Source: a bacterium (GTDB lineage: Bacteria > Patescibacteriota > Patescibacteriia > Patescibacteriales > GWC2-42-12). From it: 50,874 nt of DNA. A program made the position numbers and the translations under genes. The notes under the pieces are model-generated. The model ran no database searches, was not told where the DNA came from, and was given only the letters and a program-made list of their open reading frames with translations. Positions 1 through 47,715 of this stretch are shown here, piece after piece; positions within the stretch are counted from its first letter, which is position 1, and each line of letters begins with the position of its first letter. The DNA lies in NCBI GenBank assembly GCA_030650415.1, contig JAUSEG010000006.1:1-50874 (forward strand), given 5' to 3'.

Positions 1-1594
1 GCATCTGTATAAAAACAGGGTTTAAGGACTCTGTTTTTATTTTATTTAAGCCATTAAACATCGGTTCGAACATCGCCGAATTTTGTTTTATAGCTTGAGA
101 GTTCCCCAAAATATATTTAAAGGGTTTTTGTATATCTATAGCCAATTTTCCGTCCTTTAGTATTTGGTTCGAACCTAAACAGGCCAGTATCTCTTTTCTG
201 GTCTGCAGGTCGCCATTTTTAAACCAATAACTGGCATAGCAGGCAAAGTTAAAAGTTTTTTCCGATAATTCCAGCCATTGATCGGCCCGGTGTTCTGTGT
301 CCCTTAACCTTTCAGTCATACCGTCTCTTTGCTTTATTAACTGGTTTTTCTGTCTAAGATATTCATCGTCATCAATTAAATTTTTAAACCGCATCTTGGT
401 AAGTTCGTCAATTTCTCCTTGGACTTGGTTATAGGTTTTTTGCTGATTCTGGTAAATCGTTGTTCTGCCGTCTATTTCTTGGTCGTTCAGTTTATTCAAC
501 CATTTTATCGCCCAATCTTTAAAGCTTTCCGGTATTTCAATTTGTTTTAAATAACCGGCGACTTGTTTTTCCAATTCTTTTTCTTCAATGCACTTTTGCG
601 AGCAATCGGGATTTTTCCTTTTCGTGCAATGATAGTAGGTATAGGTTTTATTTTGCCCGGTCAGTTTCATTATTTTAGTTTTCGTTTCGGCCGTGATTAA
701 AGCCCCGCATTCGCCGCAGCGCATCGAGCCTCTTAAAGGAAAGTCATGTTTTTTAGGCCTTGGCTTGCCCTTCCCGCCCAGTAAAAATTGCACCCGGTCG
801 AATTCCTCGCTGGTTACCATCGGTTCATGCTTGCCAATTTTAATTTCCCCTTGGCAGTGTATCTCGCCAAAATAAAAAGAATTGGTAAAGATTTTATACA
901 AAGTGCTTAGGGCCAAAGGTCTGCCGCCGGACTTTCTTCTTTTAGGAGTTCTAAAGCCCCATTCATTATTGGCCATTTCCCAGATTTGTCTAACCGAATA
1001 ATTGCCGGTTAGCATTAAATCCCACATTTTCCTGATTAGTTTAAATCTTTCAGGATCTGTCAGTATTTTTTTCTCGCCTTTATCGCAAAATTTATCGTTT
1101 CTATAACCTAGAGGCGCGACGCCCGGCATCCAGCCATTATCATATTTAGTTTTTAAGCCTCTTTTAGTATTTTTGCTTAAATCCAATATAAATTGATTGG
1201 CCATGCCGAACTCTACGGCCATGAGCAAGACATTATCTCCTGGCCAATATTCCCTGTCAGAGGCCTGGATATGCTTAATTTTGCCCTTCTGGAGCATATC
1301 TATTAGGTTGCCGCCGTCAATCATATTGCGCGCCAGCCTATCAAGTTTCCAGCAAATAATTCCCTGCGCTTCGCCGCTATCTATTCTTTTGATTACTTCA
1401 TTGAATATCGGCCTGCCGGTGGCTTTAGCCGACTTTGATTCGGTCAAAATATCAATCACTTTAAGATTCATTGTCTCGGCTATCTTTTTTAGTTCATTTA
1501 ACTGCGATTCAATGGATAAAACCTGGCGGTCTTCAGTTTCAGAAGACTTACGGCAGTAAATGATATAATTTATTTTAGAATTTTTATTATTCAT
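1..1594 (-). CDS. Large serine recombinase (partial; C-terminus runs off the left window edge)
   Basis: Absent from the ORF track because it is open to the window edge. Reverse-strand translation from the ATG at 1594 gives MNNKNSKINYIIYCRKSSETEDRQVLSIESQLNELKKIAE...GIICWKLDRLARN, a resolvase-type catalytic domain. Further on it gives ...FPLRGSMRCGECGA...YYHCTKRK, a recombinase zinc ribbon. I checked by hand that the frame at 700-742 agrees with the ATG at 1594, and that it stays open from about base 121 down to base 2. Confidence 0.85.
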   Translation of the reverse strand, partial: MNNKNSKINYIIYCRKSSETEDRQVLSIESQLNELKKIAETMNLKVIDILTESKSAKATGRPIFNEVIKRIDSGEAQGIICWKLDRLARNMIDGGNLIDMLQKGKIKHIQASDREYWPGDNVLLMAVEFGMANQFILDLSKNTKRGLKTKYDNGWMPGVAPLGYRNDKFCDKGEKKILTDPERFKLIRKMWDLMLTGNYSVRQIWEMANNEWGFRTPKRRKSGGRPLALSTLYKIFTNSFYFGEIHCQGEIKIGKHEPMVTSEEFDRVQFLLGGKGKPRPKKHDFPLRGSMRCGECGALITAETKTKIMKLTGQNKTYTYYHCTKRKNPDCSQKCIEEKELEKQVAGYLKQIEIPESFKDWAIKWLNKLNDQEIDGRTTIYQNQQKTYNQVQGEIDELTKMRFKNLIDDDEYLRQKNQLIKQRDGMTERLRDTEHRADQWLELSEKTFNFACYASYWFKNGDLQTRKEILACLGSNQILKDGKLAIDIQKPFKYILGNSQAIKQNSAMFEPMFNGLNKIKTESLNPVFIQM

Positions 1595-1662
1595 AAAAAG
1601 TTATTCAATGTTTTAAATTATAGCACTATTTTTTATTATACAAAAGAATTTAAAATATTATT

Positions 1663-1815
1663 TTAACTTTTTATCGGTTTGTAAATTTTACTAAATAATC
1701 CTAATAGTTTATAGCCCAACGCCAAAACTTCTTGGTCAGACAAATGTCGGCCAAATTCGTTATAATATATTTCTTTTAGCTCATCGCGGGCTTTTTTAGG
1801 AATTTCAGGACTCAT
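1663..1815 (-). CDS. Small hypothetical protein (50 aa)
   Basis: ATG at 1815 and TAA at 1665-1663. Product is MSPEIPKKARDELKEIYYNEFGRHLSDQEVLALGYKLLGLFSKIYKPIKS. It is below the track cutoff but co-oriented and tightly packed with its neighbours. No family recognised. Confidence 0.35.
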   Translation of the reverse strand: MSPEIPKKARDELKEIYYNEFGRHLSDQEVLALGYKLLGLFSKIYKPIKS

Positions 1816-1931
1816 TATATTTACTGTTTATTTTTTTATAGTTTAATCCGGAAGCATAGATTGGACATTCCGGGGGTGGCAATTCAATTTTTTCATTGTA
1901 GATAAAAGCACCAAATTGCAAAGAATTGATT

Positions 1932-2192
1932 TTAAGCAGAAACCACTGCCGCTCTTTTGGCCTCTCTGGCTTTTTTGAACCGGTCAGCTATTTCTTGTCT
2001 TTGCTTATCTGTAAAAATTCTTTTTTTGCCTTCCGCCGGTCGTTTGCCAAAGCGACAGGGGAACAGAGCGCAAGATGTTGACTGTATGCCATCACAAGTG
2101 CACAGTTTTACTTCTTTGGCGCTGCCGCCTACGCAGTCGAGGCATTTTGCTCTAATTAATTTTAGCGGAGAGATACATTTTTTATTATCCAT
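1932..2192 (-). CDS. Small Cys-rich (putative zinc-binding) protein with basic tail
   Basis: Track ORF of 86 aa. Cys pairs CLDC...CTC...C...C are followed by a Lys/Arg-rich C-terminus. No family recognised. Confidence 0.5.
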   Translation of the reverse strand: MDNKKCISPLKLIRAKCLDCVGGSAKEVKLCTCDGIQSTSCALFPCRFGKRPAEGKKRIFTDKQRQEIADRFKKAREAKRAAVVSA

Positions 2193-2214
2193 ATTTTTAA
2201 GTTAAAAATAATTT

Positions 2215-2880
2215 TATTGCATTAAGCATTTCCACCGCCTCCGCGTTCGTGGCTGGACACGGCTGGCGTGAGGCGGTAGGGGACGAACGCCGGCAACGAA
2301 ACGAAAATGCCGAGAATAAAGAACGGTCGTTTAAGGAGTGAAGTTTTATTTTTTAAAGGCCGAGCCTCCGCTTCCGAAGAAGCGGTGGCCTTTAAAAAAT
2401 AAAACTTCGATTTAATGGCGGGTTAAAGCGTGAATGGCTAAAAAGGTTTGAGCGCGTCCGACGGCGGGCGTGCGCCTAACTCGATTTTTTAAGACGCCTC
2501 TAAGGTCGTCGTAAAAAACAAGTTAGGCGACGCCCTTGAGCCTGCATCGCCAAGTTCGGCGTGTCGTGGCGCGAAATTAAATGCCGTGAATTGGAGTGGT
2601 CGGGCGAAATCCCACGATAACGGCGGAAAGCGAAAACTAAAAATTTAAAAATTGAAATTGCGAAACGGCCGTCCGAAAAATAGCAAACGCTTGAAACCGG
2701 CGAAGCGTTTAATATTTTTCCGACCGCCGTTTCTTTAGATGAGGTTATCTTTTAAATTTTCAGTTTTCGCTCACCGCCTGCCTGAATGGCACGGTAAATG
2801 CCGAGAGGGAAGAGTGCTCGGAAGTTGCGGGCGGGGAAGTGTTAGTGCGGCTCGCCAAGTTATTGCTCCGCCCGCTGAAA
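2215..2880. ncRNA. Large G+C-rich, ORF-free, multi-helix structured element (candidate large ncRNA, or a DNA-level ori/packaging/recombination structure); strand unresolved
   Basis: There is no credible ORF. G+C is visibly far above the flanks. Nested long helices:
- 2340-2361/2387-2408 (22 bp perfect), capping 2368-2374/2379-2385.
- 2445-2457/2530-2542, enclosing 2473-2481/2521-2529 and 2485-2496/2507-2518.
- 2630-2650/2750-2770, enclosing 2662-2682/2713-2733 and 2685-2692/2703-2710.
- 2232-2241/2270-2279.
- 2827-2834/2868-2875. Confidence 0.55.
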
Positions 2881-2883
2881 TTA

Positions 2884-3447
2884 TTAATGTGCGAATAAAA
2901 CGCCTTGTTGTAAATTAACGCCATATTTATCGGTGGCTTTTTGGAATATGGCCAGAATGTCTTTATCAACATCATCGTTGCCGGTAAGTACCTGATAGCG
3001 GAGTTTCATTAATTTTTCTAAATCGCTAACATCAAAAACATAGTTATTGCTCGTTGCCCGGAGTTTAATCTGTTTAAACGCCAGATCGATTAATTCTATG
3101 GTTCTTTGCAGGTGAACGGATTGGGCTGTGGCCTCGCTGATTAAATCATGATTGATTATCTTAGCGGTAATTTCCATCTGCCGGTCAAAGTAATTCGCGA
3201 AATGTCGTGACATGGTGGACTTGGAAAATAAAATATTATGCTTTTCTTTCATGGCGTCGATTATCTGGTGCTGTTTTAGGCCGTTATTTCTTAGTTCGTG
3301 AATTTTTATCATATAGGGCGATTTGCAGATTTCGCAAGGTTTTCTGCAAACTCGTTCGATTTTCAGTTTTTCCAGTTCGTTATTTTTTTCCAATTCGGGC
3401 GATGCGGGATTTTCTGTTTTTTCGTCTGGTTTTGTTTTTTCGTTCAT
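2884..3447 (-). CDS. Hypothetical DNA-binding-like protein (CxxC followed by a helical/HTH-like segment)
   Basis: Track ORF 2884..3492. I prefer the internal ATG at 3447 (MNEKTKPDEK...), because the extension MHLTILITIIIFLKI overlaps the AT-rich repeat region. CRKPCEICKSPYMIKIHELRNNGLKQHQIIDAM resembles small phage/plasmid DNA-binding proteins. Confidence 0.5.
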   Translation of the reverse strand: MNEKTKPDEKTENPASPELEKNNELEKLKIERVCRKPCEICKSPYMIKIHELRNNGLKQHQIIDAMKEKHNILFSKSTMSRHFANYFDRQMEITAKIINHDLISEATAQSVHLQRTIELIDLAFKQIKLRATSNNYVFDVSDLEKLMKLRYQVLTGNDDVDKDILAIFQKATDKYGVNLQQGVLFAH

Positions 3448-3466
3448 AATTTTTAAAAAAATGATA

Positions 3467-3615
3467 ATTGTTATAAGAATTGTTAAATGCAAATTGTTAA
3501 ATACAGATTGTTAATACATATATAGGGCGGGGGTCGGATTTAACCTTGGGCAAGAGTCGGATTTAACCTTTAGCTGGTGTTGGATTTGACCTTAACCGGT
3601 GTTGAATTTAACCTG
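3467..3615. repeat. Origin-like region: four ATTGTTA direct repeats plus four 15-bp iterons
   Basis: ATTGTTA occurs at 3467, 3479, 3493 and 3507. The iterons are GTCGGATTTAACCTT at 3533 and 3556, GTTGGATTTGACCTT at 3579 and GTTGAATTTAACCTG at 3601. Their spacing is 23, 23 and 22 bp. The region lies directly downstream of the wHTH gene. Confidence 0.7.
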
Positions 3616-3653
3616 AGTGTTGATAACTTTTTTTGGCGATTTTATAACATTTA

Positions 3654-4169
3654 TTAATCTGCATAGTCAAGTTGCTCTTCTGAAAACGGCTGGACAAATC
3701 TGTTGCTATTATTTCTCTTCCGAAACTGGCTATCATTTTTTTCAATATTCATTTGCTGTTGATTCCTCAATCTTACATTTTTATCCTCGCCGGCTTTCCT
3801 TGGATTGATGCAGCTGTCAGGAAAGACTAGTGTATAAATTTTAGATTGGCTGTTTTCCTTTTTCCTTTTTTTAACCCAGCCCCTTTGCACCAACTCTTTT
3901 ATATGGTCTTTTATTCTTTCCAATGACATCCCGAGCGCCTTGGCCATACGCCTTTGTTTCCAAAAGCTTTCCCCGTATTTATTAGAAACCAGGTAAAGGA
4001 ATAGCCAAACCATTTTAGCCCCCTTAGTTACTGTTTTATCACGCAGATATTCGCCCGGAATGCTTGCGTAGCGTTTTAGCGTTTTGCTTAAACCAGCCTC
4101 GCGCTTGAGATCTTCAGGCGACTTGAATTCGGGCTCTTTAAATTGTTGCTCTTCCATCGTATCTGGCAT
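3654..4169 (-). CDS. Winged-helix protein, replication-initiator-like
   Basis: Track ORF of 171 aa. AKMVWLFLYLVSNKYGESFWKQRRMAKALGMSLERIKDHIKELVQRGWVKK is a typical wHTH segment. The gene is adjacent to the iterons. Confidence 0.5.
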   Translation of the reverse strand: MPDTMEEQQFKEPEFKSPEDLKREAGLSKTLKRYASIPGEYLRDKTVTKGAKMVWLFLYLVSNKYGESFWKQRRMAKALGMSLERIKDHIKELVQRGWVKKRKKENSQSKIYTLVFPDSCINPRKAGEDKNVRLRNQQQMNIEKNDSQFRKRNNSNRFVQPFSEEQLDYAD

Positions 4170-4304
4170 TTTATTTTAATTTATTTGCTTAATTGCAGGG
4201 CCTAAAATTTTTTCCATACAAAAAAACTAAGTGTCATACTTAGTCTATAAAACCAATAAATATTTGTATATGAAACTAAAAACGGGGTTTTAAATTCCTA
4301 AATT

Positions 4305-5141
4305 TTATCCAGGATATCTAATATCATCTGCGTATAATAAATGGCTCCACACCATTTTATTTATATCTGAATCTTTGCATTCTTTGGGCATAAGACTGGA
4401 GAATTCATCTTCAAGCGTCAACCTTGTTTCTTTATATGACTTCTTGTTAATTCTCCGTAATTCATAAGCTCTTAAGTTTCTTTTGTACAGCTTATTTTTA
4501 TTCATGTTAATTTGCAGTTTATATTTATTTTTGTAAGCTCGCTTTTTTATTTTAAGTTCATGTTTAATAAACTTAAAATCCCCGATTTCGGTCGCCTCAT
4601 GAATCTTAATTGTAAGATCGTCGTTGACCTTCGGCAAATAGTCGGCTAGTATTGATTCTCTATGCTTTATTGTCAGATTCTTTGGTATAGTTAAAAGCCT
4701 GGCGCTAATAGGTTTTTTCCAAACACGATGATTTCTTCTCACGAGATAATAAATAAAAGATTTGCCGACTATAATTTCTTTTATAAGGCCCAGGATATTG
4801 TTTTTTCTTGTTGGGTAGGGCCGGTTAATTTTTTCCGCTTCTTTTTTAACTGAATCATAATCTGAGTGTAGCGAAGAAATATTTTTATCTATTTCTTGAA
4901 TCTTCGGCCCTTCTTCGGGGATTGAATCGGCCCAAATGTTAAATGCCCGGTCTATTAATTCATCAAGGTTAGCCGCTCCAGCAAATTTGTCTTTGTTTTT
5001 ATCGAATAAATCGTCGGGTATTTTAAACATGACTCTGAAGTCTTCTATTTCCAAAGTAACCCTTTTATTTCTATATATTCCTATAATATTAGATTCAATT
5101 CTATCTAAGATTATTTCTTTGGCAGATTTAGTCTTAAGCAT
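4305..5141 (-). CDS. Hypothetical protein (278 aa, Lys-rich)
   Basis: Long track ORF with no competing frame. No motif recognised. Confidence 0.5.
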   Translation of the reverse strand: MLKTKSAKEIILDRIESNIIGIYRNKRVTLEIEDFRVMFKIPDDLFDKNKDKFAGAANLDELIDRAFNIWADSIPEEGPKIQEIDKNISSLHSDYDSVKKEAEKINRPYPTRKNNILGLIKEIIVGKSFIYYLVRRNHRVWKKPISARLLTIPKNLTIKHRESILADYLPKVNDDLTIKIHEATEIGDFKFIKHELKIKKRAYKNKYKLQINMNKNKLYKRNLRAYELRRINKKSYKETRLTLEDEFSSLMPKECKDSDINKMVWSHLLYADDIRYPG

Positions 5142-5347: not shown

Positions 5348-6331
5348 ATGCCGATAGATCAAGGCAGAGCATTTGAATATGCCTGCATATCAGCGTTAAA
5401 TGAAGCTATCACTCGAGCCGGTCAAAACCCGACAATAAATCGGGATAGTAGTTTTGAAATCGCCGAGCAAAATTTTAATTTATTAGCCGATGAAAATAGG
5501 GAGCATGCGGAAGATTTGCGCAAAGCCGCTAGTAAAGTTTCCGAAACGCTTTTAAAAACAGAGCCAAAGCTCAATACGGCTGAAGACTCTTTTCGGGAGC
5601 TAACGCTTTCAATACAGCCTGACACGGCCGGGATGTCTGGAGATGTGCGGGATGTTATTGTTATAAAAGCAAGTACTGGAAATCAAGATAATTGGGAGAT
5701 CGGATTATCTTGCAAGCATAATCATCAAGCGGTTAAGCATCAGCGGGTTTCACCAACAATTGATTTTGGCGATATCTGGCTTGGATTTCCTTTGAGCCAA
5801 GATGAAAAATTAGAGTTGAATAGAATATTTGGGCAAATTGATAACGAGATAGCGGGCGGAAAAATAAAATGGTCTGAAGTAGAAACAAAAGAGGATCGTT
5901 ATTATATTCCAATTTTAAATTTAATTTTGGGAAAAATAGGAAACCATCCCGAGCAGAGCCAATTAGCCAATCATTTTCTCGGGTATTTGATAGGGAAAAA
6001 AGATTTTTACAAAGCAATCTACCGGCAGGCGAAGGGTACTGTTCAGATTCAGGGCTTTAATTTATACGGAAGCTTAAACAAACCAGCGGGGAGTCGGCGC
6101 CCGGAACAAAATATAAACAGGATTAATTTGCCGGAAAGAATTATAGGCTGTGGAATTAAGCCCGGCAGCAAGACCACCTTAGAAATCTTTTTTGACCGGG
6201 GCTGGCAAGTATCTATGAGAGTGCATAATGCCTCTACACGCTTAGAAAAGAGCCTTAAAATGGATGTTGGGCTTATAGGCAATCCCCAAGAATTATTTAG
6301 TTTTACACATACATTAAATGACAACCAATAA
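5348..6331 (+). CDS. Type II restriction endonuclease, HaeIII-family-like
   Basis: The 327-aa ORF overlaps the start of a HaeIII-like C5 methylase by 14 nt. The N-terminus MPIDQGRAFEYACISALNEAI resembles what I recall of HaeIII/NgoPII-type enzymes. The assignment rests mainly on context. Confidence 0.6.
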   Translation: MPIDQGRAFEYACISALNEAITRAGQNPTINRDSSFEIAEQNFNLLADENREHAEDLRKAASKVSETLLKTEPKLNTAEDSFRELTLSIQPDTAGMSGDVRDVIVIKASTGNQDNWEIGLSCKHNHQAVKHQRVSPTIDFGDIWLGFPLSQDEKLELNRIFGQIDNEIAGGKIKWSEVETKEDRYYIPILNLILGKIGNHPEQSQLANHFLGYLIGKKDFYKAIYRQAKGTVQIQGFNLYGSLNKPAGSRRPEQNINRINLPERIIGCGIKPGSKTTLEIFFDRGWQVSMRVHNASTRLEKSLKMDVGLIGNPQELFSFTHTLNDNQ

Positions 6332-7400
6332 TTTAAAAATTGCATCTTTATTTTCTGGCTGCGGCGGGTTAGACCTAGGCTTTGACAAAGCTGGGTTTTA
6401 CGTTGTTTGGGCAAATGAATTTGATGGCACAATTTGGGAAACATTTGAATTTAATTTTCCAAAAGTAAAGCTGGATAAAAGGAGTATCGTAGATGTTCCG
6501 GCTTCTGAAATTCCCGATATTGATGGGATGATAGGCGGTCCGCCATGCCAAAGCTGGAGCGAGGCTGGGGCGGGTAGGGGAATAAACGATAAGCGAGGCC
6601 AGTTATTTTATGATTATATCCGCATACTTAAAGCAAAGCAGCCGAAATTTTTTCTTGCTGAAAATGTTTCCGGCATTCTCCACCCGCAACATGCCAAAGC
6701 TTTTACGAATATTATCCAAGAATTTAAGAATGCTGGATATGAAGTGTCTTATAAACTTTTGAACGCCAACGATTATGGCGTCCCCGAGGATAGGCTCCGC
6801 GTGATTATAGTCGGTTACCACAAAAAATTGAAAAAGAAATTTGAATTTCCAAATCCCCTAAAGAGCAAGCCAGTTTTGAAAGATGCCATTTTTGATTTGC
6901 GCTTGGCAAAGCCTGCTAAAGATAAAAATAAAACTAATGGCGATGTTTTAAAGGTTCCGAACCATGAATATATGAATGGTGGCTTTTCGACTATTTATAT
7001 GTCCCGAAATAGGGTGAGGGGTTGGGATGAGCCATCGTTTACCATCCAGGCAGGCGGAAGGCATGCCCCAATTCACCCTCAAGCCCCCAAGATGAAATTT
7101 ATTAGCCAAAATAAACGAATTTTTATGCCGGGCAAGGAAAAATTATATCGCCGCCTTTCGGTTAGGGAATGTGCACGAATACAAACATTCCCTGATAATT
7201 TTATTTTTAAATATCGTGATATAGCAGATGGGTATAAAATGATTGGGAATGCAGTGCCTGTTGAATTCGCCCGCCACATTGCAAATAAAATATGCCAGGA
7301 TTTAAGCGGTATATCGGAGGCATTAAACTATGGACAAATTTACCAAAGAAAAGAGGAGCGAGATTATGTCAAAAATTCGCTCGCAAAATACCAAAGTTGA
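6318..7400 (+). CDS. DNA (cytosine-5)-methyltransferase, M.HaeIII-like (probable GGCC specificity)
   Basis: Motifs FSGCGGLDLGF (I), GGPPCQSWS (IV), ENV (VI), QTFPD and GNAVP (X). The variable region HEYMNGGFSTIYMSRNRVRGWDEPSFTIQAGGRHAPIHPQAP closely parallels M.HaeIII as I remember it. Confidence 0.9.
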   Translation: MTTNNLKIASLFSGCGGLDLGFDKAGFYVVWANEFDGTIWETFEFNFPKVKLDKRSIVDVPASEIPDIDGMIGGPPCQSWSEAGAGRGINDKRGQLFYDYIRILKAKQPKFFLAENVSGILHPQHAKAFTNIIQEFKNAGYEVSYKLLNANDYGVPEDRLRVIIVGYHKKLKKKFEFPNPLKSKPVLKDAIFDLRLAKPAKDKNKTNGDVLKVPNHEYMNGGFSTIYMSRNRVRGWDEPSFTIQAGGRHAPIHPQAPKMKFISQNKRIFMPGKEKLYRRLSVRECARIQTFPDNFIFKYRDIADGYKMIGNAVPVEFARHIANKICQDLSGISEALNYGQIYQRKEERDYVKNSLAKYQS

Positions 7401-7734
7401 AATTTTAATTTTTCGTGAGTTAAGGAAGCGAAAAATATATTTTCAAAAGCATTATAAAAAAATTCTTGGTTGCCCGGATATAGCTTTGCCAAGAAAAAAG
7501 AAAGCAATATTTATTGATGGAGATTTTTGGCACGGATACCAATTTTTAAGATTAAAAAAGAGATTACCCAAAAAATATTGGTTAAAGAAAATTGAAGGCA
7601 ATGTAAAGCGCGACTTAAGAAATCGCACACAATTGAAACGCGCTGGTTGGAAAATTTTAAAAATTTGGGAGCATGAGATTGCTAACGATTTTACAAAGAG
7701 CATGAATAAAGTAATTAACATTTTGGGAGATTGA
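7330..7734 (+). CDS. vsr: Very short patch repair endonuclease
   Basis: KEKRSEIMSKIRSQNTKVE...FIDGDFWHG...GWKILKIWEHE is the Vsr signature. The gene overlaps the 3' end of the methylase by 71 nt in another frame. Confidence 0.85.
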   Translation: MDKFTKEKRSEIMSKIRSQNTKVEILIFRELRKRKIYFQKHYKKILGCPDIALPRKKKAIFIDGDFWHGYQFLRLKKRLPKKYWLKKIEGNVKRDLRNRTQLKRAGWKILKIWEHEIANDFTKSMNKVINILGD

Positions 7735-7808: not shown

Positions 7809-7829
7809 AAAAGTACAATTGAATAGTTA

Positions 7830-7934
7830 AGTTATCAAGAGTGCAGCGAGGGAACTAGCCCGACGACCTGCCAGCAACCCCGGAGCAATCCATCCGGAAG
7901 GTGCCAATTCTAGCCCGACAAGGGAAAGATAAAG
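7830..7934 (+). promoter_or_regulatory. SAM-I (S-box) riboswitch aptamer
   Basis: GTTATCAAGAGTGCAGCGAGGGAACTAGCCCGACGACCTGCCAGCAACC...GGTGCCAATTCTAGCCCGACAAGGGAAAGATAAAG matches the S-box blocks in order. The blocks are TTATCAAGAG, GAGGGA, GCCCGA.GA, GCAACC, GGTGC.AATTC and AGATAA closing P1. Confidence 0.9.
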
Positions 7935-7954
7935 GTCGATTTTTTATTGGTAAA

Positions 7955-8015: not shown

Positions 8016-8726
8016 ATGGAAAACAAAATTAAAGAGCTGCGTGATTTTTATCTTTTAGACGGCAAGCTACTATACGTTTCCAAAGACTTTATTGGTTTTG
8101 ACCCGATTATTGGTAAAGGGTTATCTTATGAGCGCAATAAAAAAGAAAATACCACAATCAAGCTTGATAAATTTAAAATCGGGGAAACTTCTTTTAATGT
8201 TGTTTTGACTAGCTTTATGGATTGGGGTCCGTTAAGGGGTTATCATCGAGCAGAAATATTAAAAAATGGCTATAGCATTATAAATTATGAACACGGCGGC
8301 ATGGGGCATGGGTCTAACTATTGTAAAGGTGATTATTTTCACAAAGAAAATAAAGACGCTTTTTTACTCAAAAATGGTTATGCGCTTAAAGATAGATTAA
8401 GTGATAAAATTTATTTAGATCTTAACGGCAATAATGATTATCTGTTTTGGTTTAAGAATATAGTTATACCGACTAAGGGCAAAAATTGGCCAGCCGATGG
8501 CAGAGCGTTAGAAAATAACCGCTCCTATATTTGCGCTGAAATAGAATCTCTAAGGCAAATTCAATGGGAAGCGAATGTAAATTTTAGCAATCACCATATT
8601 TATATCAAAAAGACAGCTGTGCCGTATTGCTCACTTGTTTATTGGAGATCGGCCGATGATTATCAAATATATAGAAAAGATAGTTGGCAGACGGCGCTTG
8701 ATAAAATAGAGCTCATATTCATATAA
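8016..8726 (+). CDS. Hypothetical soluble protein (236 aa) under SAM-I riboswitch control
   Basis: Track ORF and first gene after the riboswitch. It contains HGGMGHGSNYCKGDYFH. No TM segment or known motif recognised. Confidence 0.6.
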   Translation: MENKIKELRDFYLLDGKLLYVSKDFIGFDPIIGKGLSYERNKKENTTIKLDKFKIGETSFNVVLTSFMDWGPLRGYHRAEILKNGYSIINYEHGGMGHGSNYCKGDYFHKENKDAFLLKNGYALKDRLSDKIYLDLNGNNDYLFWFKNIVIPTKGKNWPADGRALENNRSYICAEIESLRQIQWEANVNFSNHHIYIKKTAVPYCSLVYWRSADDYQIYRKDSWQTALDKIELIFI

Positions 8727-17203: not shown

Positions 17204-20200
17204 ATGGAAAACGAAAATATTAATGTACCAGCAACGGAAAATATACCTCCGACCAAGCCATTATCGCCGCTCCAACCGAATAAGAAAAATAAACGAATTT
17301 GGCCGGGAATAGGCATAGTAATATTTTTAGCTTTAGTTGTTTTTATTTCAGCTTTCTTTTATTTTCAAACACGGACGACCGGTCCTTTAGGCGGCAAGAC
17401 CCCGGAAAGAAAAGATTTATTTAGCGGCTTTTCAAAACTAATTATCAGCGCTGCTAATGCCAATGATAACTTTACTTTAAAACCTTTAAACATTGATAGT
17501 TTGGGTGTTAAGGCTGATACGGTTTATGTGATAAAAAGCAAAGAACCCTTGAATACGGATATAATTAAAGACAATTTGCAAATTAAGCCTGATTTTCCTT
17601 ATGACTTTAAAAAAATTTCTGACACAGAATGGCATTTAGTACCGCGCCAGACCCTGCCGGCCAATACCTTAGTGCAGATTGCCTTAGCCACGGCTTATAT
17701 CGATGAGAATAATCAAACCCAAGAACGCGATTATTCCTGGGTATATCAAGTCAAGGATAGTTTTAAAGTGCTTCATAGTATTCCTCGTGACGCCGGCACG
17801 AATGTTCCGGTTAATACTGGTGTTGAGATTACTTTTAGCCATGACAATTACTACGATTATGAAAAATATTTTTCTATTAATCCTTCAGTTAAGGGAAAAT
17901 TTGAACAGCACGGCCGCACTTTAGTTTTCGTTCCAGAAACAACCTTAAATTTTAAAACCTTATATCAAGTTACGATTAAGCGCGGTTTGCCGTTAGCCGA
18001 TTCCGCGGAAACTTTAGCCTCTGATTATATTTTTACTTTTGAAACTCAGTTAGCCAGTAATGCCAAAGCTAATAATTGGTATGGAGTTTATGACCGATTG
18101 ATTGAGGCTAATTCCCAAGACGCGCCAATTATACAAGTTTCTTCTTATGCGGCGCCCGACCAGCTGGAAGTTGAAATTTTTCGTTTTAATGATTGGCAGG
18201 AATATTTAGAGTCAATCCGCGAACGTGATAATTTGCCCTGGTGGTCTTACAGTAAAGACGATTTTTTAATGGCTACCGCCAAATTAAAAAAGATCAGCAT
18301 CTTTACCGTACCGGTGAAGGCAAACAGCCAGGTAAAATACATCGAATTCCCAGAAAAGTTGCCCCCAGGTTTTTATTTAGCCGAATTGAAAAACAATAAC
18401 GATAAAGTGCAAGTCTGGATACAAGTAAGCGATTTATCAGCTTATTATAATGTGACAAAAACCCAGACGATTTTTTGGGTAAACGATAATATAAATAAAA
18501 ATCCGGTTAGCGGCGTTAAATTGGAATTACTTGATAGTTCATTATCGGTTTTAACCGACGCGCAGGGCGTGGCTGTATTTAAAACGCCGGACGAGATATT
18601 AAATAATGCCACTAACGAAAAAGTCGCTAAGCGCCAGTATTTTAAATTAAACAAAGACAATGGCACCTTAATTTTACCGGCCTCGCAAATTTCGCATGAT
18701 TGGTGGTGGAATCGTCCAGTCGCGGCTGATAATTACTGGCTCTATCTTTATACTGACCGGCCGCGCTATCAGACGACCGACACGATAAAATTTTGGGGGC
18801 TGGTTAAAGACCGCAGCTCTAAATCCATAAATGAAAAAGCCACTTTGACGCTTTTTAAGGAAGGGTATGTCGATTATTATTATCAACCGGTAGCCATTAT
18901 GAGCCAGGAGCTAAAAATTAGCGACTTGGATACTTTTAAGGGCGAGATGGCGATAAAAAATTTACGCCCCGATTATTACACCCTGGAATTAAAAATCGGT
19001 GAAATCGTGGTTAAACGAAGCTATATAACCATCATGCCTTATACCAAGCCAGCTTTTCAGTTAAGCCTGGTGCCGGATCATCATGCGGCTTTCGCCGGCG
19101 ATACGATTAATTTAAAAGTTAAAGCCAATTTTTTTGAAGGCACTCCGGTACCGGCTTTGTCGCTCAAGTTTGAAACTCCGGAAAAAGTAGAAAAAATATT
19201 TACTACCGATGAGAATGGGGAGGCTAATTTGACGTATACTGCAAATTATAATGATTGCCCTGACGATTACGGCTGTTGGCCGAAATCAACCAGATTATCA
19301 ATCTCGCCGGAAAATTCCGAACTGGCGGAAATCAGCGCTGAAACTTATGTTAATTTTTACGGCCCGAAAGTTTATCTTGAAAGTAAAACCATTTATCCTG
19401 CCAAAGGCCAGGGCCAGGTGGAAATGACCGCCAAGTTAATTGATTTGGCTAAACTGGAAACTGATGAATCGGGGAGTCGGAGTCTGGGCGACAGACCGGC
19501 GGCCGGAATTAAGATTGAAGGTGATTTAATAAAGACTTCATATGTTAAGAAGGAAACCGGCACAGCCTACGATTTTATCAACAAAACCAGCTATAAAACT
19601 TATAGCTACGACAGGCGCGAGGAAAAAGTCAGGAGTTTCAGCGGTATGACCGACCAAAATGGCCAATATATTTTTAAACAGCAGCTTGAACCGGAAATTT
19701 CCTACCAGCTCAAGTATCGCGTTATTGACAGCCAAGGCCGATTCGACAACCAGACCAATTATTTATATTACTATAACGGTATTTCCCTTAATCACTACGA
19801 TGGCTTTAACTACCAATATTATCATTTAAGCTTAACTGACCCCATAACCCAGCAAATTAAAACTTACTCGGTTAATGATCAAGTTAAGGCAATTTTTAAG
19901 AAAAATGATGAGCCGGTGCAAAATGGCAGCAACCGTTTTCTCTATCTAGAGCTCCAAAACGGCTTACAGGAATATCAGATTACCAGTAAAAACGAATACA
20001 ACTTTGCTTTTGAATCCCGCGATGTACCGAACGTTAATCTGGTTGGAGTTTATTTTGACGGCCAGTCGTACCACTCAACTGCCGCAAGCTACTGGGGCGA
20101 TTCGATCAATTTTAAAACCGCGGACAGGCAGCTAAAAGTCAAAGTTGAAACCGATAAAGATAACTACTTGCCCGGCGAAAATGTCAAATTAAATTTTGCG

Positions 20201-22699
20201 GTAACTGACATGAATAATAAACCCTTGCCGGCGGAAATAAACTTAAATTTAGTGGATGAAGCCTATTATGCGGTAGCCGAAGATACGGCCGCCCCCTTAG
20301 AATCAATTTATACCAACGTTGGCATGGGCACTTTGATGGCATTTTCTACCCATGAAAGCCTAGTTGATAGTTCTGGCGGCGCGGAAAAAGGCGGTTGTTT
20401 TACTGCCGGTACAAATATTTTACTGGCCGACGGGACGAATAAGCCGATAGAAAAAATGGCCGTAGGCGACCAGGTATTAACCTTTAGCGACCCGGTCAGC
20501 CGGCAATTAATCGTCGGCCGGGTAGAAGAGGTGGTTGAACATTTGGTCGGCGAATACCTGATTATCAACAAAAAAATCAAGATTACTCCGGAACACCAGG
20601 TTTTTTCCAATAATCATTTTGTTGATGCCGGCCGGTTGAAAGCAGGCGACTGGCTTTGGTCACCCGCCAGAGAAAAAGTCTTCGTGCGCGACATCGAAAT
20701 AAAGCATGAATTGGTAAAAGTCTATAACCTGCGCATTGACCCGCAGCATACTTACATTGCCGATGGCATTTGGGTTCATAATGCTGAAAAGGGCGGCGGA
20801 GCCAGAGAATATTTTACCGATGCCGCCGTCTTTCAGTCCGTCCGCACCGGCAGCGACGGCCGGGCAAATACCGAATTTAAACTACCGGATAACATCACTT
20901 CTTGGCGCGTGACAGCGCAGGGTTTAACTCAAGATTTATGGGCCGGGGTAAGTGTTACCAAGATCCCGGTATCTTTGCCGGTTTTTGCCGAAGTGACTAT
21001 CGGTAATGAATATTTAACCGCAGATAAACCCTTGGCGCGTTTACGCGCCTACGGTACTGCTTTGACTGCCGCCGACAAAGTTGATTTTTTATTGTCAGCT
21101 CCGACCTTAGGTTTAGATAAATCACCGATTCTTTCCGCCCCGGCTTTTAAGCCTGTCTATTATAATTTACCGGCGTTGTCCTTGGGTGAGCATAAAATCG
21201 TTTATGAATTAAAATCAGCCAAAGGCGATGACGCCATTAAGCTGCCGCTTCAGGTGGTTAGCTCGCGGCTGGCAGGACAGACGTCCCAAAGCAGCCAGCT
21301 TACTACCGAGACTAAGGTCAAAGCGATTAATAATTTCCCCATGGCGGTGGTGTTAAGTGATTTAGGCCGGAATGAACTTTACGACCCGCTGCTGAATTTA
21401 AGCTGGTCCTGGGGCGACCGTCTTGATCAAAAGTATGTCCGTAAATTAAGCCGGGAGGCTTTAAAAAAGTACTACCAGGAAGATATCATTGAGCCGGCTT
21501 TTAACCCTTTTGATTATCAGCTTTCCGGCGGCGGCCTGACTTTACTGCCGTATAGCAGTGAAGACTTGGAGTTTTCCGCCAGAGTGTCGGCCTTGGGCGC
21601 GGAGGCGTTTGACAAGATTTCTTTAGCCCAGTATTTTTATAAAAAGCTGGAGGACAATCAGGCTAATCGCGAGGAAATTAGTTATGCTTTGTTCGGTTTG
21701 GCCGAATTAGGCGAGCCGGTACTAACCAGGATTAACTCTTGGCTGAAGCGGACCGACTTAAGCCCCAAGGAGCAACTTTATCTGGCCCAAGCGCTGGTTG
21801 ATTTAGGAGCTAAAGAGTTGAGTCAGACAATTTTTTATGGAGTTTTAAAGCAATACGGCGAGGAAAAATTACCGCAAATCGTCATCCGCGTCAGCAACAA
21901 TTACGATGAAGTCTTCCAGGCTACGGCCATCGCCGCAGTCTTGGCCGCTTCGCTCGACGTTAGCGAAGCCAAGGGCTTGTTTAAATATTTAGCAGAGAAC
22001 CAGGCTTTATACGGCCAAAATAAAAACAGTGAGAATTTGTTTAGCTTGGAAAAATTAAATTATATAAAACATGTTTTACCTAATTTAAAACCCAGCCCGG
22101 CCAAAGTAGCCTATGAATTAGCGGGTGAAACCAAAGAAGTTAATGTTACCGGCAGTAATTTATATTCTTTCCAATTGGCTCCGGAACAAGCCGGCAGCCT
22201 TAATTTTAAGTCCGTTACCGGCCAGGTAGGAATTTCCGTACGCTACCTAGAAACGTTGGACTTAAATAAAGTTAAACGCGACAGCGATATAAGCGTTAGG
22301 CGAGAATATTACGTTAACGGAGCGCCAACCACGCAAATTAAGGAAAAAGATTTAGTGGAAGTCAGGCTTTATCCGGTTTTTAACAAACAAGCCCTGTCCG
22401 GCAATTACCAGATTACCGATATATTGCCGAGCGGCTTAGCGCCGGTTACTAAATTATATTACCGCGGTAATAATTATGAATGCAATTATTGGTATCCTTA
22501 TAACACCGACGGGCAAATGGTCAAATATTTTATTAATCGGGATTGGCGCAGTAATTATTGCGGCGGCGATTATATTAAATATTATGCGCGCGTAAAAAAT
22601 CGCGGAGTTTATTCGGCTGAACCCGCTATTATCCAATCGTTTGTCAACCCCGATTTTATTAATTACTCTAATTCCCAAAGCATAACCATTGCCGAATAA
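17204..22699 (+). CDS. Membrane-anchored alpha-2-macroglobulin-like giant protein (no thioester motif) with inserted Hint domain
   Basis: The protein is 1831 aa with an N-terminal TM helix (IWPGIGIVIFLALVVFISAFFYF). The post-bait A2M block is REYFTDAAVFQSV...FKLPDNITSWRVTAQG. The C-terminal part is a helical TED-like region in which SWGDRLDQ replaces the GCGEQ thioester site. Confidence 0.8.
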   Translation: MENENINVPATENIPPTKPLSPLQPNKKNKRIWPGIGIVIFLALVVFISAFFYFQTRTTGPLGGKTPERKDLFSGFSKLIISAANANDNFTLKPLNIDSLGVKADTVYVIKSKEPLNTDIIKDNLQIKPDFPYDFKKISDTEWHLVPRQTLPANTLVQIALATAYIDENNQTQERDYSWVYQVKDSFKVLHSIPRDAGTNVPVNTGVEITFSHDNYYDYEKYFSINPSVKGKFEQHGRTLVFVPETTLNFKTLYQVTIKRGLPLADSAETLASDYIFTFETQLASNAKANNWYGVYDRLIEANSQDAPIIQVSSYAAPDQLEVEIFRFNDWQEYLESIRERDNLPWWSYSKDDFLMATAKLKKISIFTVPVKANSQVKYIEFPEKLPPGFYLAELKNNNDKVQVWIQVSDLSAYYNVTKTQTIFWVNDNINKNPVSGVKLELLDSSLSVLTDAQGVAVFKTPDEILNNATNEKVAKRQYFKLNKDNGTLILPASQISHDWWWNRPVAADNYWLYLYTDRPRYQTTDTIKFWGLVKDRSSKSINEKATLTLFKEGYVDYYYQPVAIMSQELKISDLDTFKGEMAIKNLRPDYYTLELKIGEIVVKRSYITIMPYTKPAFQLSLVPDHHAAFAGDTINLKVKANFFEGTPVPALSLKFETPEKVEKIFTTDENGEANLTYTANYNDCPDDYGCWPKSTRLSISPENSELAEISAETYVNFYGPKVYLESKTIYPAKGQGQVEMTAKLIDLAKLETDESGSRSLGDRPAAGIKIEGDLIKTSYVKKETGTAYDFINKTSYKTYSYDRREEKVRSFSGMTDQNGQYIFKQQLEPEISYQLKYRVIDSQGRFDNQTNYLYYYNGISLNHYDGFNYQYYHLSLTDPITQQIKTYSVNDQVKAIFKKNDEPVQNGSNRFLYLELQNGLQEYQITSKNEYNFAFESRDVPNVNLVGVYFDGQSYHSTAASYWGDSINFKTADRQLKVKVETDKDNYLPGENVKLNFAVTDMNNKPLPAEINLNLVDEAYYAVAEDTAAPLESIYTNVGMGTLMAFSTHESLVDSSGGAEKGGCFTAGTNILLADGTNKPIEKMAVGDQVLTFSDPVSRQLIVGRVEEVVEHLVGEYLIINKKIKITPEHQVFSNNHFVDAGRLKAGDWLWSPAREKVFVRDIEIKHELVKVYNLRIDPQHTYIADGIWVHNAEKGGGAREYFTDAAVFQSVRTGSDGRANTEFKLPDNITSWRVTAQGLTQDLWAGVSVTKIPVSLPVFAEVTIGNEYLTADKPLARLRAYGTALTAADKVDFLLSAPTLGLDKSPILSAPAFKPVYYNLPALSLGEHKIVYELKSAKGDDAIKLPLQVVSSRLAGQTSQSSQLTTETKVKAINNFPMAVVLSDLGRNELYDPLLNLSWSWGDRLDQKYVRKLSREALKKYYQEDIIEPAFNPFDYQLSGGGLTLLPYSSEDLEFSARVSALGAEAFDKISLAQYFYKKLEDNQANREEISYALFGLAELGEPVLTRINSWLKRTDLSPKEQLYLAQALVDLGAKELSQTIFYGVLKQYGEEKLPQIVIRVSNNYDEVFQATAIAAVLAASLDVSEAKGLFKYLAENQALYGQNKNSENLFSLEKLNYIKHVLPNLKPSPAKVAYELAGETKEVNVTGSNLYSFQLAPEQAGSLNFKSVTGQVGISVRYLETLDLNKVKRDSDISVRREYYVNGAPTTQIKEKDLVEVRLYPVFNKQALSGNYQITDILPSGLAPVTKLYYRGNNYECNYWYPYNTDGQMVKYFINRDWRSNYCGGDYIKYYARVKNRGVYSAEPAIIQSFVNPDFINYSNSQSITIAE
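20396..20782 (+). other. Hint / mini-intein-like (BIL-type) domain, aa 1065-1193 of the A2M-like protein
   Basis: It starts CFTAGTNILLADG (block A). It contains ITPEHQVF (block B TxxH). It ends VYNLRIDPQHTYIADGIWVHN (blocks F/G). The +1 residue is Ala. No endonuclease domain is present. Confidence 0.8.
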
Positions 22700-45775: not shown

Positions 45776-45783
45776 AAGCTATA

Positions 45784-46932
45784 ATGGAGCTGTATAAAAA
45801 TTATAATTTTTATAAATTTATGAATGAATCAAAAATAGAGCAAGGTTCAGCTAACAGCGATAATGAGCAAGCCATGGTTGCTAAGTTTGAAAGAATGGGT
45901 ATTAAAAATGTAGTCAGCGTTTTTAGGGTTGAGAATGAAAAATCGTTAGACGGAAAGGAAATTAAAGCTGAAATATTTTGGGTAAAATTTAAGAAACCAG
46001 AAGGCCAGGAATTTTCTGATTTATCCGAGGTCGAGGGCAAAATATATTTACCGGTGGAGCCAAGCGGAGAATTAATCCTGTTTACTCCGGGGTTTCCCGG
46101 CGGCAACGCCGGAAGATTTGAACAACTTTACGCGGAAGATTTTACCGACGCCGGTTATGCTTTTTTTACTGTTCGGCACAACGGCACATCTTTGACTAAT
46201 GGCGCAACCTCTCTGGAAATTTTGAATTCAGCCAAAAGAATGGAAATCGCGCAGAAACAAGGTGAGCACCATATCGGCGGCACCAGGCCGGAAGGCTATA
46301 GCCCGTTTGATATAATTAATGAATCAATCACGCCATTGATGGCCTTACAGAATAAATATGAAAAAATTCATTTGATGGGGCAATCAATGGGCGTGGCGGC
46401 GAGTTATAATGCCATAAGAAGAACACAAGGGCATCCTGAAGTTCAGAATAAAATTGGCAATGTGGTAGGAATATCCGGTTATGTGGGTAAAGAACATGAG
46501 GGCGCGACCTGGGATACTATGAATATGCCCATGGCCGATTTAACCGAGTATGAATATGGCTATGTTAAAAAAGTGGACGCCAACATAGTGCCTAAAGAGC
46601 AATTTCAAGCCGAAATGGCAAAAGTTGCTGAAGCAAACAAGGCTCTAAAAATTCCCGGGCATATAGGCAATGTTTTGGTTTATACACCGAAAGATCCATT
46701 GGTTGCCGGGCCGGATAAATCTAAAAAAGATTACGCCTTAAATTATGGCCCCGTATCCGCTAAAAAAATTATTATTGAAGACGAAACTAATCTTGCAGAT
46801 AAAAAGCCCCATTCCATGTTATGGATTTCGCCAGAGAATTTATTAAGAGCCGTGAAAGCCAAGGTTTCAAGCCATGGGCCGCATTTTGTAAAAGTTCCAA
46901 GAGCTAAAGACGGATTAATAGAAAGGGGTTAA
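45784..46932 (+). CDS. Alpha/beta hydrolase
   Basis: GQSMG is the nucleophile elbow, in HLMGQSMGVAAS. The upstream block is TPGFPGG. Confidence 0.65.
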   Translation: MELYKNYNFYKFMNESKIEQGSANSDNEQAMVAKFERMGIKNVVSVFRVENEKSLDGKEIKAEIFWVKFKKPEGQEFSDLSEVEGKIYLPVEPSGELILFTPGFPGGNAGRFEQLYAEDFTDAGYAFFTVRHNGTSLTNGATSLEILNSAKRMEIAQKQGEHHIGGTRPEGYSPFDIINESITPLMALQNKYEKIHLMGQSMGVAASYNAIRRTQGHPEVQNKIGNVVGISGYVGKEHEGATWDTMNMPMADLTEYEYGYVKKVDANIVPKEQFQAEMAKVAEANKALKIPGHIGNVLVYTPKDPLVAGPDKSKKDYALNYGPVSAKKIIIEDETNLADKKPHSMLWISPENLLRAVKAKVSSHGPHFVKVPRAKDGLIERG

Positions 46933-46934
46933 TT

Positions 46935-47702: not shown

Positions 47703-47715
47703 TTAAAATAATCAA

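Follow-up and report, generated by a model that had tools for sequence, protein, structure and literature searches.

The window analysed here comprises positions 1 to 50,874 of contig JAUSEG010000006.1 from a bacterium of the Patescibacteriota (NCBI GenBank assembly GCA_030650415.1; 50,874 nucleotides, nt). Near its left end two minus-strand genes, encoding a protein of 187 amino acids (aa; 3447-2884) and one of 86 aa (p86; 2192-1932), flank a non-coding gap at 2193-2883, which we call the block. This G+C-rich gap is a genuine, conserved, hairpin-forming non-coding module of about 700 nt, and its relatives in phages lie between the two terminase genes. Under genetic codes 11 and 4 alike, none of the frames had an open reading frame (ORF) of at least 60 aa that lay wholly inside 2193-2883. 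Two shadow ORFs of 59 and 71 aa touched only the right edge of the gap, and reading TGA as a sense codon gave a longest stop-free run of 83 codons in the block and no additional ORF. The block had a G+C content of 49.8%, above the 39.3% of the window and the 35-37% of its flanks. The minimum free energy (MFE) was -284 kcal/mol for the plus strand and -268 kcal/mol for the minus strand, with shuffle means of -218 and -187, and the corresponding z-scores against dinucleotide shuffles were -9.9 and -11.8. A preliminary description of this DNA had reported an ORF-free, G+C-rich block, as found here, and its hand counts of G+C (38 of 60 bases in 2221-2280 and 12 of 60 in 2161-2220) were exact.

Helices, domains and motifs of the block

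The conserved module reached beyond the gap itself, with an upstream boundary near 2930, 5′ of the stop codon of the 187-aa gene, which probably encodes a small terminase subunit (terS). The parts of the module are as follows, in the order in which they are met on the strand of the flanking genes, here called the sense strand.

2193-2930, minus strand: whole conserved non-coding module, including about 45 nt of the terS 3′ end (full-length nhmmer matches, alignment A7)
2827-2875, minus strand: helix P1, GCGGGCGG (2875-2868) with CCGCCCGC (2834-2827), around a 33-nt loop with GCGGAGC and GGCGAGC
2820-2828, minus strand: conserved single-stranded tract GCAACTTCC, just 3′ of P1, with the consensus GCAAYTTCY
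2788-2808, minus strand: small hairpin GGCAT/GTGCC and motif copy 1, CTCGGCATTT (repeat search)
2622-2778, minus strand: domain 2, a long nested rod, 2622-2650/2750-2778 over 2662-2692/2703-2733
2579-2591, minus strand: motif copy 2, CGGCATTT, in a loop closed by the helix CGTGG/CCACG
2457-2547, minus strand: domain 3, the rod GGGCGTCGCCTAAC...GTTAGGCGCACGCCC (alignment helices 11-12)
2340-2408, minus strand: domain 4, bulged-hairpin core with a 22-bp perfect outer stem, a UUCG-capped inner stem and a 3′-side bulge of 6 nt, AGGCUC
2290-2317, minus strand: hairpin CGGCA/TGCCG and motif copy 3, CGGCATTT (repeat search and consensus fold)
2224-2290, minus strand: 3′ domain, helix ACCGCCTC/GAGGCGGT (2279-2270 with 2241-2232); the segment 2285-2290 has two possible partners

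A mechanical search for inverted repeats recovered 2340-2361/2387-2408 (22 nt, 100% complementary), 2364-2374/2379-2389, 2473-2489/2513-2529 and 2485-2496/2507-2518, as well as the arms of the domain 2 rod, 2622-2650/2750-2778 and 2662-2692/2703-2733, where the inverted repeats were 90% and 87% complementary. The helices 2232-2241/2270-2279 and 2827-2834/2868-2875 appeared in the MFE folds of both strands, and 2445-2457/2530-2542 appeared in the plus-strand MFE fold only. The repeat search gave back five of the eight helices of the preliminary description, three of them with slightly longer arms, and the other three were in the MFE folds. Its motif AAATGCCGWGA, said to recur three times, was present at 2305, 2579 and 2796. 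The motif core CGGCATTT had three minus-strand copies in the block, one other minus-strand copy (35774) and no plus-strand copy in the whole 50.9-kb window. The proposed pseudoknot 2243-2250/2283-2290 stood only in part: the complementarity is there, but comparative data do not clearly favour it, as variants in two of the relatives described below (L166 and L157) conflict with it and 2454-2459 fits better as a partner. This alternative helix, 2285-2290/2454-2459, had a G·U pair in five sequences that was G-C in L166.

Searches against known families placed the block nowhere, in line with the earlier view that it could not be assigned to any class. When the whole window was scanned against Rfam 15 at the gathering threshold, there was no match in the block, and a relaxed scan (E up to 10) of 2100-3000 returned only far-sub-threshold chance matches, such as plant microRNA hairpin models. 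Rfam families, GOLLD, ROOL, OLE, HEARO, raiA, pRNA and c4 among them, gave no match to the block at gathering score, and at that threshold there were 0 matches in the 14 phage loci introduced below. With the block as query, blastn in distant mode matched none of 50,697 phage records and 72,556 plasmids. In IMG/VR, three specific patterns of the window type gave zero, two (by chance) and zero matches. A loose 14-base pattern was also tried there and rejected, as it gave at least 120 chance matches (L009-L128), none with a block.

Conservation and covariation in related integrated elements

Homologous blocks were collected through homologs of the flanking proteins, contig look-ups and a 21-base gapped pattern, which yielded five new true loci among 23 matches in metagenome and genome scans; the GCAAYTTCY tract was part of the search pattern that recovered true homologs. 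At least seven related integrated elements have the block in full length, with nhmmer matches in L005, L006, L166, L157, L151 and L002 (E values of 1e-173 to 1e-224), and a diverged form was found in four more, L003, L149, L169 and L001. The window type is here called type 1, and the type of L001, L003 and L149 is called type 2. The gene order shared by these elements was an uncharacterised 250-320-aa protein, a replication initiator (Rep, HTH_36/DnaD-like), the block, p86, a protein of about 50 aa and an integrase. The block was about 80-90% identical across elements that differed in Rep, in the integrase (serine or tyrosine) and in the presence of terS or p86. Among the satellites, the 187-aa gene was found only in the window and L001. 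Synteny of p86 with the block was seen in L002, L003, L005 and L006, p86 was absent after the block in L166, and in L157 the block followed directly on a fragment of the 278-aa gene. The relatives without terS kept about 45 nt of its 3′ end as non-coding sequence with an in-frame stop, and the conserved unit therefore starts 5′ of the terS stop codon. Relatives of the window element abut tRNA genes. One metagenome-assembled genome (Patescibacteria STB_78, contigs 15 and 17) has two block-bearing elements, L005 (the same as L163) and L166; one of them carries a tyrosine integrase next to tRNA-Gly and the other a serine recombinase next to tRNA-His.

RNAalifold on seven close sequences gave 157 pairs, 34 of which were changed on both sides (alignment A4), compared to 13.8±2.4 in shuffles and 3-9 in slid-partner controls; 92.6% of the cells were paired. 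Indels among relatives were not multiples of three. Covariation in homologs, which the preliminary description had named as the check on its fold, is thus present in the form of compensatory changes well above the controls, and the structure of the block is, judging from these alignments, under selection. The centre of the block in L002 (4900-5170) consisted of runs of G and C (GGGGG/CCCCC); this is likely poor assembly and was discounted in the pair counts.

Helix P1 was invariant among close homologs and covaried in distant relatives, reading GCGCGCGG/CCGCGCGC in L001 and L169 and GCGGCGG/CCGCCGC in L003 and L149. It also covaried in phages, with GGAGCGG/CCGCTCC in L129 and TCGGGCGG/CCGCCCGA in L173. 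In the phages with P1 (L129, L132 and L173), the 5′ arm lies inside the terS 3′ end and the helix spans the terS stop. Variants of the GCAAYTTCY tract were found in both type 1 and type 2 satellite blocks, and the tract was diverged in the phages L132 (GCAACATCC) and L173 (GAAATTCC). In domain 2, five pairs of the outer stem carried double changes, and a different hairpin was substituted for the inner part in L005, L006, L166 and L157. Domain 3 was nearly invariant across satellites and recognisable in the phages L132 and L173; in L166 a change from CT to GG was compensated by AG to CC. The helix of the 3′ domain read ACGGCTTC/GAAGCCGT in phage L132, which amounts to two double compensatory changes, and in L003 a T-A pair was replaced by C-G.

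In nine independent variants the bulged hairpin of domain 4 was built alike. Its outer stem, 13-24 bp long, was paired perfectly, and an inner stem led to a loop of 4-6 nt that was mostly UAAU (UUCG in the window). A bulge of 6 nt, confined to the 3′ side, read AGGCAA, AGCGAA or AGGCUC. Across the nine variants (alignment A8) the outer stem was 99.1% Watson-Crick, with 8 of 13 pairs double-changed and no one-sided change in 110 cells. A covariance model, R1, was built from four members with the window sequence excluded. It scored 39.5 bits (E 5.8e-5) for the minus strand of the window, against 32.4 bits for the plus strand, and it found the held-out L166, L006, L003 and L132 (E 2e-7) as well as a candidate in phage L142 (E 2e-3).

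The upstream gene and the terS-terL gaps of small phages

The 187-aa protein had 69 homologs, mostly on contigs of 12-16 kb. The contigs that were fetched were genomes of small Patescibacteria podophages of about 14 kb (13-16 kb). They encode a capsid of the SU10 type, a portal of the SPP1 type and an M23/LysM lysin, and their genes all have the same orientation; two of these contigs, L129 and L130, were circular permutations of each other. A homolog of the 187-aa protein stood directly upstream of the large terminase subunit (TerL) in every fetched phage, and the identity of TerL was confirmed for L132. The window protein was 46-57% identical to the phage proteins upstream of TerL and 64% identical to that of L173. 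Five family members matched phrog_426, 'terminase small subunit' (best E 6.6e-4), and seven matched Pfam Phage_Mu_Gp27 (best E 1.8e-4). Members of the family share a Cys cluster, a helix-turn-helix and a helix of 57 residues, and their C-terminus is highly conserved. The AlphaFold model of the window protein had a pLDDT of 74. A Foldseek search with this model against PDB and BFVD returned nothing at E ≤0.001, the P74-26/G20c small terminases recurring only among the weak matches, and a sequence-profile search of PDB found no match. We consider it probable, mainly on synteny, that the 187-aa protein is TerS.

An uncalled gap after terS and before TerL was present in 14 of 14 phages. It measured 389-1536 nt, or 3-11% of the genome, and 13 of the 14 gaps were strongly structured (z -4 to -31), the exception being the truncated gap of L144 (+1.1 sense, -1.7 antisense). 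Long near-perfect inverted repeats were common to these gaps; in L172, for example, one was 28 nt long with 100% and another 34 nt with 94% complementarity. No tRNA-like elements were found in the gaps. The primary sequence was almost wholly different between phage groups, and in near-identical pairs of phage contigs the gaps were 100% identical, leaving no substitutions to score. Phage L132 matched the 3′ domain of the window block (nhmmer E 6e-10) and also had P1, domain 3 and the bulged hairpin. The same layout of P1, bulged hairpin and domain 3 was found in L173. These matches between phages and the window block were partial and not full-length.

The type 2 blocks (L001, L003 and L149) and the phages L140, L141, L142, L145 and L172 had a palindromic stem in common, TCGCATAACGNACATT. 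Both arms of this stem, about 60-130 nt apart, were seen in L140, L141, L145, L172 and L149, and one arm was seen in L001, L003 and L142. By sequence, each block type has its own phage group: the window type goes with L132 and L173, and the L001/L003/L149 type with the TCGCATAACGNACATT phages. No homologs of Rep, p278, p86, p50 or the recombinase were found in the phage loci.

Short motifs in the phage gaps were strongly biased to one strand: GCGAGC occurred 26 times in sense and never in antisense, GCGGAGC 20 times and never, and AGCGA 51 times and 6 times. GCGAGC and GCGGAGC were 10-15-fold enriched in the gaps over the rest of the phage genomes. The longer motif GAGCG[G/T/A]AGCGA had 15 copies, all in sense, with at least four flanking pairs in 40% of cases compared to 7% in controls, and often capped short variable stems. 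Because the region consists mostly of inverted repeats and the motif never occurs reverse-complemented, the one-strand motifs must sit outside the stems. Two tandem hairpins of about 75 nt were noted in L129 (8360-8560), with TAGTCT or AGTCT on both arms and in the same orientation; a similar unit in L172 (4764-4944) makes this another conserved asymmetric internal-loop motif.

That the region is a decayed gene or functionless palindromic filler is effectively excluded. The fast turnover of sequence between phage groups is what filler would show. Opposed to it are the lack of any ORF of at least 60 aa under code 11 or 4, indels that are not multiples of three, the excess of compensatory changes over controls, and the retention of the region in 14 of 14 phages despite genomes of only 13-16 kb.

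The window element as a candidate phage satellite

The genes around the block belong to an element whose left end lies outside the window. Its other features are listed here.

1-1597, minus strand: large serine recombinase, cut off by the start of the window (Pfam Resolvase, Recombinase and Zn_ribbon_recom)
1932-2192, minus strand: p86, a Cys-rich protein of 86 aa (homologs P0071-P0081), as a rule next downstream of the block in satellites
2884-3447, minus strand: probable small terminase subunit (terS), 187 aa (synteny and weak profile matches)
3533-3593, no strand assigned: three iterons, (T/G)CGGATTTAACCTT, third copy TTGGATTTGACCTT; direct repeats between Rep and terS, read from the sequence
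3654-4169, minus strand: replication initiator (HTH_36/DnaD-like), 171 aa (Pfam and PHROG matches)

The Pfam domains bear out the earlier placing of the block on a mobile element that encodes a large serine recombinase. Rep matched HTH_36, DnaD_N and O-like families, and RepL only at E 0.0047, below the cut-off of that family. The iterons at 3533-3593 are probably the origin of the element. No capsid, portal or terL gene was found in 1-5141, and the rest of the window was ordinary chromosome, with PheT, BipA and MetRS. The element looks like a phage satellite, as it combines an integrase, terS and a Rep next to iterons and the window has no terL or capsid gene. From the matches described above, it also looks as if the element took its terS-proximal region from a phage of the L132/L173 type. 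A literature search found no description of phage satellites in Patescibacteria. No p86 homolog was found in phages.

Restriction-modification genes were noted beside the element, where 5348-7734 (plus strand) encodes a HaeIII-type endonuclease, a C5 cytosine methyltransferase and a Vsr-like ORF of 134 aa. Relatives also adjoin restriction-modification genes (HpaII in L002, Eco57I-type in L005 and type I in L003), and these genes could be satellite cargo.

A proposed packaging signal acting in cis, or a possible RNA

The preliminary description had named a packaging site as an alternative to an RNA. Since the gene at 2884-3447 encodes a TerS homolog and the same kind of block fills the terS-terL gaps of phages, this alternative has to be raised to at least equal standing with the RNA reading. 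We favour, tentatively and at somewhat less than even odds, that the block is a pac-type packaging-initiation region that would act in cis and would have been borrowed from helper phages. The block would then be the non-coding half of a phage packaging module. TerS, either the element's own or that of a helper, would recognise the region of P1 and GCAAYTTCY together with the repeated one-strand motifs, which would be the three copies of CGGCATTT in the window and GCGRAGC/AGCGA in the phages. TerS would recruit the TerL of the helper, and the replicated satellite DNA would be cut and encapsidated. Relatives without terS would keep the block and rely on the TerS of the helper, as in pac/cos mimicry. 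The hairpins might provide an extruded or bent DNA architecture for the TerS ring, or the signal might be read single-stranded. The binding of TerS, the start of cutting at the block and the role of the hairpins are steps that we infer.

Several observations point to packaging. The structured gap adjoins terS in 14 of 14 phages, and the block begins about 45 nt inside the terS 3′ end, in the window as in L001; this is where pac sites are commonly located. As far as sequences can tell, the block moves independently of its Rep, integrase, terS and p86 neighbours, and its modules are common to phage and satellite while the other satellite proteins tested appear to have no phage homologs. Satellites are reported to share little with their helpers beyond packaging signals (PMC11417361). 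The pairing of two block types with different phage groups and the gene content of the element point the same way. The short one-strand motifs may be compared with arrays of terminase-binding sites. The stems behave like DNA palindromes, being near-perfectly Watson-Crick with few wobbles and no tetraloop bias.

Other points weigh against a packaging signal. In tailed phages, known pac and cos sites are read in duplex form and have no maintained compensatory hairpins, so that a pac site alone leaves the covariation unexplained. P1, whose 8 bp enclose a 33-nt loop, and the 6-bp long-range helix 2454-2459/2285-2290 cannot form cruciforms. The TerS of L001 is 78% identical to that of the window, yet past roughly the first 170 nt the L001 block belongs to the other type; TerS, if it reads the block, would therefore read only the 5′ part. 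TerS itself was assigned from synteny and weak profile matches (best E 1.8e-4 and 6.6e-4), and Foldseek gave no significant match. Finally, 0.4-1.5 kb is large for a pac site.

The covariation and the strand-specific features are the evidence for the rival reading, a new large structured RNA class on the minus, gene-sense strand, either as a discrete non-coding RNA or as a structured 3′ region of the terS transcript. This is possible, if somewhat doubtful. The scaffold of covarying hairpins would show the AGGCAA/AGCGAA bulge, the UAAU loop and the GCGRAGC loops to TerS or to another phage or host factor, with a role in packaging, in terminase expression or in helper-satellite interference. In favour of an RNA, the 34 double-changed pairs are well above the controls and P1, which is not a cruciform, covaries across distant relatives. 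The asymmetric module, in which stems vary while the 3′ bulge and the loop are kept, is the usual signature of an RNA-protein site. A covariance model scored the sense strand higher in every case, and the motifs were sense-only and outside the stems.

Composition gave a mixed picture of the strand. In the long helices, G·U pairs were more frequent in sense than in antisense both in the phages (18 vs 6) and in the type 2 satellites (9 vs 0), and two G·U pairs of L003 were A-U in L001 and L169. The type 1 close set showed no asymmetry, with 13 G·U pairs on the minus strand vs 14 on the plus strand (A·C on minus). Phage gaps had an excess of G+T on the sense strand (+0.054 vs -0.031 elsewhere), and the sense strand had the lower MFE in 12 of 14 gaps; in the window and L132 it was the antisense strand that was G-rich and folded slightly better. 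All neighbouring genes were co-oriented with the sense strand of the block, and neither a convincing promoter or terminator bounding the window block nor a hairpin with a U-run (intrinsic terminator) on the minus strand of 2193-2883 was found. With co-oriented neighbours and no terminator in the window block, a sense transcript is probable. Taken together, the evidence leans modestly towards the minus strand, a choice that the preliminary description had left open.

Other features of the stems do not suit an RNA. The long stems were about 98% Watson-Crick and transversion mismatches (25) were as common as wobbles (24), and the outer stem of the bulged hairpin lacked one-sided changes altogether. 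GNRA and UNCG tetraloops were not enriched (4 of 136 on each strand, about chance level); the window had one classic tetraloop, a cUUCGg on its minus strand, which is a point on the side of an RNA. Perfect RNA duplexes of 22-28 bp would be substrates of RNase III. Phage groups have almost no primary-sequence core in common, and there is no obvious need for a satellite to carry its own copy of a trans-acting RNA. An RNA of the OLE, GOLLD or ROOL kind, as the preliminary description had suggested, is not established, given the near-pure Watson-Crick stems, the lack of tetraloop enrichment and of a bounding promoter or terminator, and the missing Rfam match. It is rather unlikely, on our reading, that an undescribed terminase-associated sense RNA of 0.4-1.5 kb follows terS as a fast-evolving rod scaffold and makes packaging specificity, or its hijack, RNA-mediated.

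A possible inter-operon insulator or single-strand initiation site

The 3′ ends of the phage gaps bear on a further explanation. About 7 of 12 phages (L132 at 6185-6208, and L138, L139, L143, L145, L170 and L172) had an extended -10 element of the TGCTATAAT type where the gap ends on its 3′ side, 6-10 nt before the ATG of TerL in six of them and about 55 nt before it in L172. If these are promoters, the TerL late mRNAs would be leaderless in six phages and the gap would lie upstream of the late promoter instead of forming a TerL leader. The hairpin stack could accordingly be an inter-operon insulator that ends or processes the upstream (early, rep or terS) transcript, with control of the TerL late promoter in phages; in satellites it would keep the p86, excision and integrase genes silent until a factor from the helper acts. 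The pairs GCGAGC-N3-GCGAGC, which lie about 7 nt (L138) and about 20 nt (L172) upstream of the -10 and about 60-75 nt upstream in L132 and L170, would suit this role, as would a terminator-like structure of A-tract, hairpin and T-tract right after P1 in L132 and the constant position of the satellite block between the rep/terS side and the integrase/excision side. We nonetheless regard an insulator as improbable, as the minus strand of the window block has no hairpin with a U-run and 0.4-1.5 kb is far beyond the needs of termination. The conservation of tracts outside the stems would also go unexplained, and so would the keeping of phage-type sequence by satellites when any terminator might serve.

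An sso- or ssi-like single-strand initiation site would fold on the displaced sense strand, as single-stranded DNA, to be recognised by the RNA polymerase or primase of the host, and would be host-specific and exchangeable. The sso elements have large secondary structures, function in one orientation and limit host range (PMC5703833). The block is likewise highly structured, orientation-specific and non-coding, it is common to unrelated replicons that probably use the same hosts, and its strictly Watson-Crick stems are those expected of DNA hairpins. The phage loop motifs contain TAGCGA, which resembles the CS-6 sequence TAGCGT of ssoA, a resemblance that we treat as a lead and not as a test. 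Rep is HTH_36/DnaD/O-like with iterons, L132 has a weak DnaD-like match and no HUH rolling-circle initiator was seen; the block is 3-8 times the size of known sso elements, and the invariable linkage to terS in phages would have to be a coincidence. We judge such a site to be highly improbable.

Comparison with known systems

By analogy, the block seems to work most like pac/cos mimicry combined with a private TerS in the style of SaPIs. In the mimicry of PLE-ICP1, the cos-type SaPIs/PICIs and P4, a non-coding stretch by the packaging genes is likewise the main overlap between helper and satellite, and it is kept without terS. The predicted pac of ICP1 lies within a 489-bp intergenic sequence, of which PLE copies 89 bp at 71% identity (PMC11417361). 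The present case differs in that the shared region is about 700 nt, its hairpins are maintained by compensatory changes and the host belongs to the Patescibacteria; it is known from sequence alone. Satellites of the SaPI type with their own TerS resemble the window element, an integrative element that combines an integrase, a Rep next to iterons and terS and has neither terL nor a capsid gene within the window; the window TerS is homologous to the phage TerS and best conserved C-terminally. Unlike them, the element carries a serine recombinase, or a tyrosine one in its relatives, neither repressor nor capsid-remodelling genes could be recognised, and the helpers are candidate phage lineages.

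Among RNAs, the pRNA of phi29 is similar in that a phage encodes it, that it is structured and that it goes with the machinery of packaging; it differs in being 174 nt long and belonging to protein-primed phages without TerS, and the block had no Rfam match to it even at E up to 10. GOLLD, ROOL, OLE, HEARO/omega RNA and raiA are, like the block, hundreds of nt long, G+C-rich in A+T-rich genomes, multi-helix and often found on phages or mobile elements. Unlike these RNAs, the block consists of long near-perfect rods with few G·U pairs, no GNRA/UNCG bias, little conserved core and no covariance-model match. A survey of IMG/VR reported 14 candidate csRNAs that are consistently upstream of a putative large terminase (PMC10690425). 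These have the same genomic position as the phage gaps, and none could be linked to the block family. The elements ssoA, ssoU and others are, like the block, orientation-specific, structured and exchangeable non-coding cassettes with conserved loop motifs (PMC5703833); they differ in their length of 160-300 nt and their HUH Rep, where the block goes with a DnaD/O-like Rep and terS linkage.

Other features of the window

The only Rfam family found in the window was a SAM-I riboswitch at 7829-7935 on the plus strand (58.5 bits, E 4.6e-11), and the 236-aa ORF downstream of it (8016-8726) had no Pfam match. An alpha-2-macroglobulin-like protein of 1831 aa was encoded at 17204-22699 (plus strand), with a Hint/PT-HINT domain at residues 1065-1194 that could be an intein or a pretoxin module. 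At 43017-49176 (plus strand), five co-directional ORFs included three paralogs of about 430-490 aa that end in a PEP-utilising mobile domain.

Significance for Patescibacteria and their phages

The block links the window satellite candidate to a family of phages of about 14 kb, and this is a concrete helper-satellite pair to seek in ultra-small uncultivated bacteria. The module of the bulged hairpin and the signature of P1 followed by GCAAYTTCY can be used as handles for searching metagenomes. That 3-11% of a phage genome of 13-16 kb is spent on a hairpin-rich terS-terL region suggests an unrecognised need in packaging or late-gene expression. As a pac signal, the block would depend on folded nucleic acid, an unusual property among tailed phages. 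As an RNA, it would represent a new large terminase-linked RNA class, and RNA-mediated packaging specificity, if true, would be a distant functional analogue of the phi29 pRNA in terminase-using phages.

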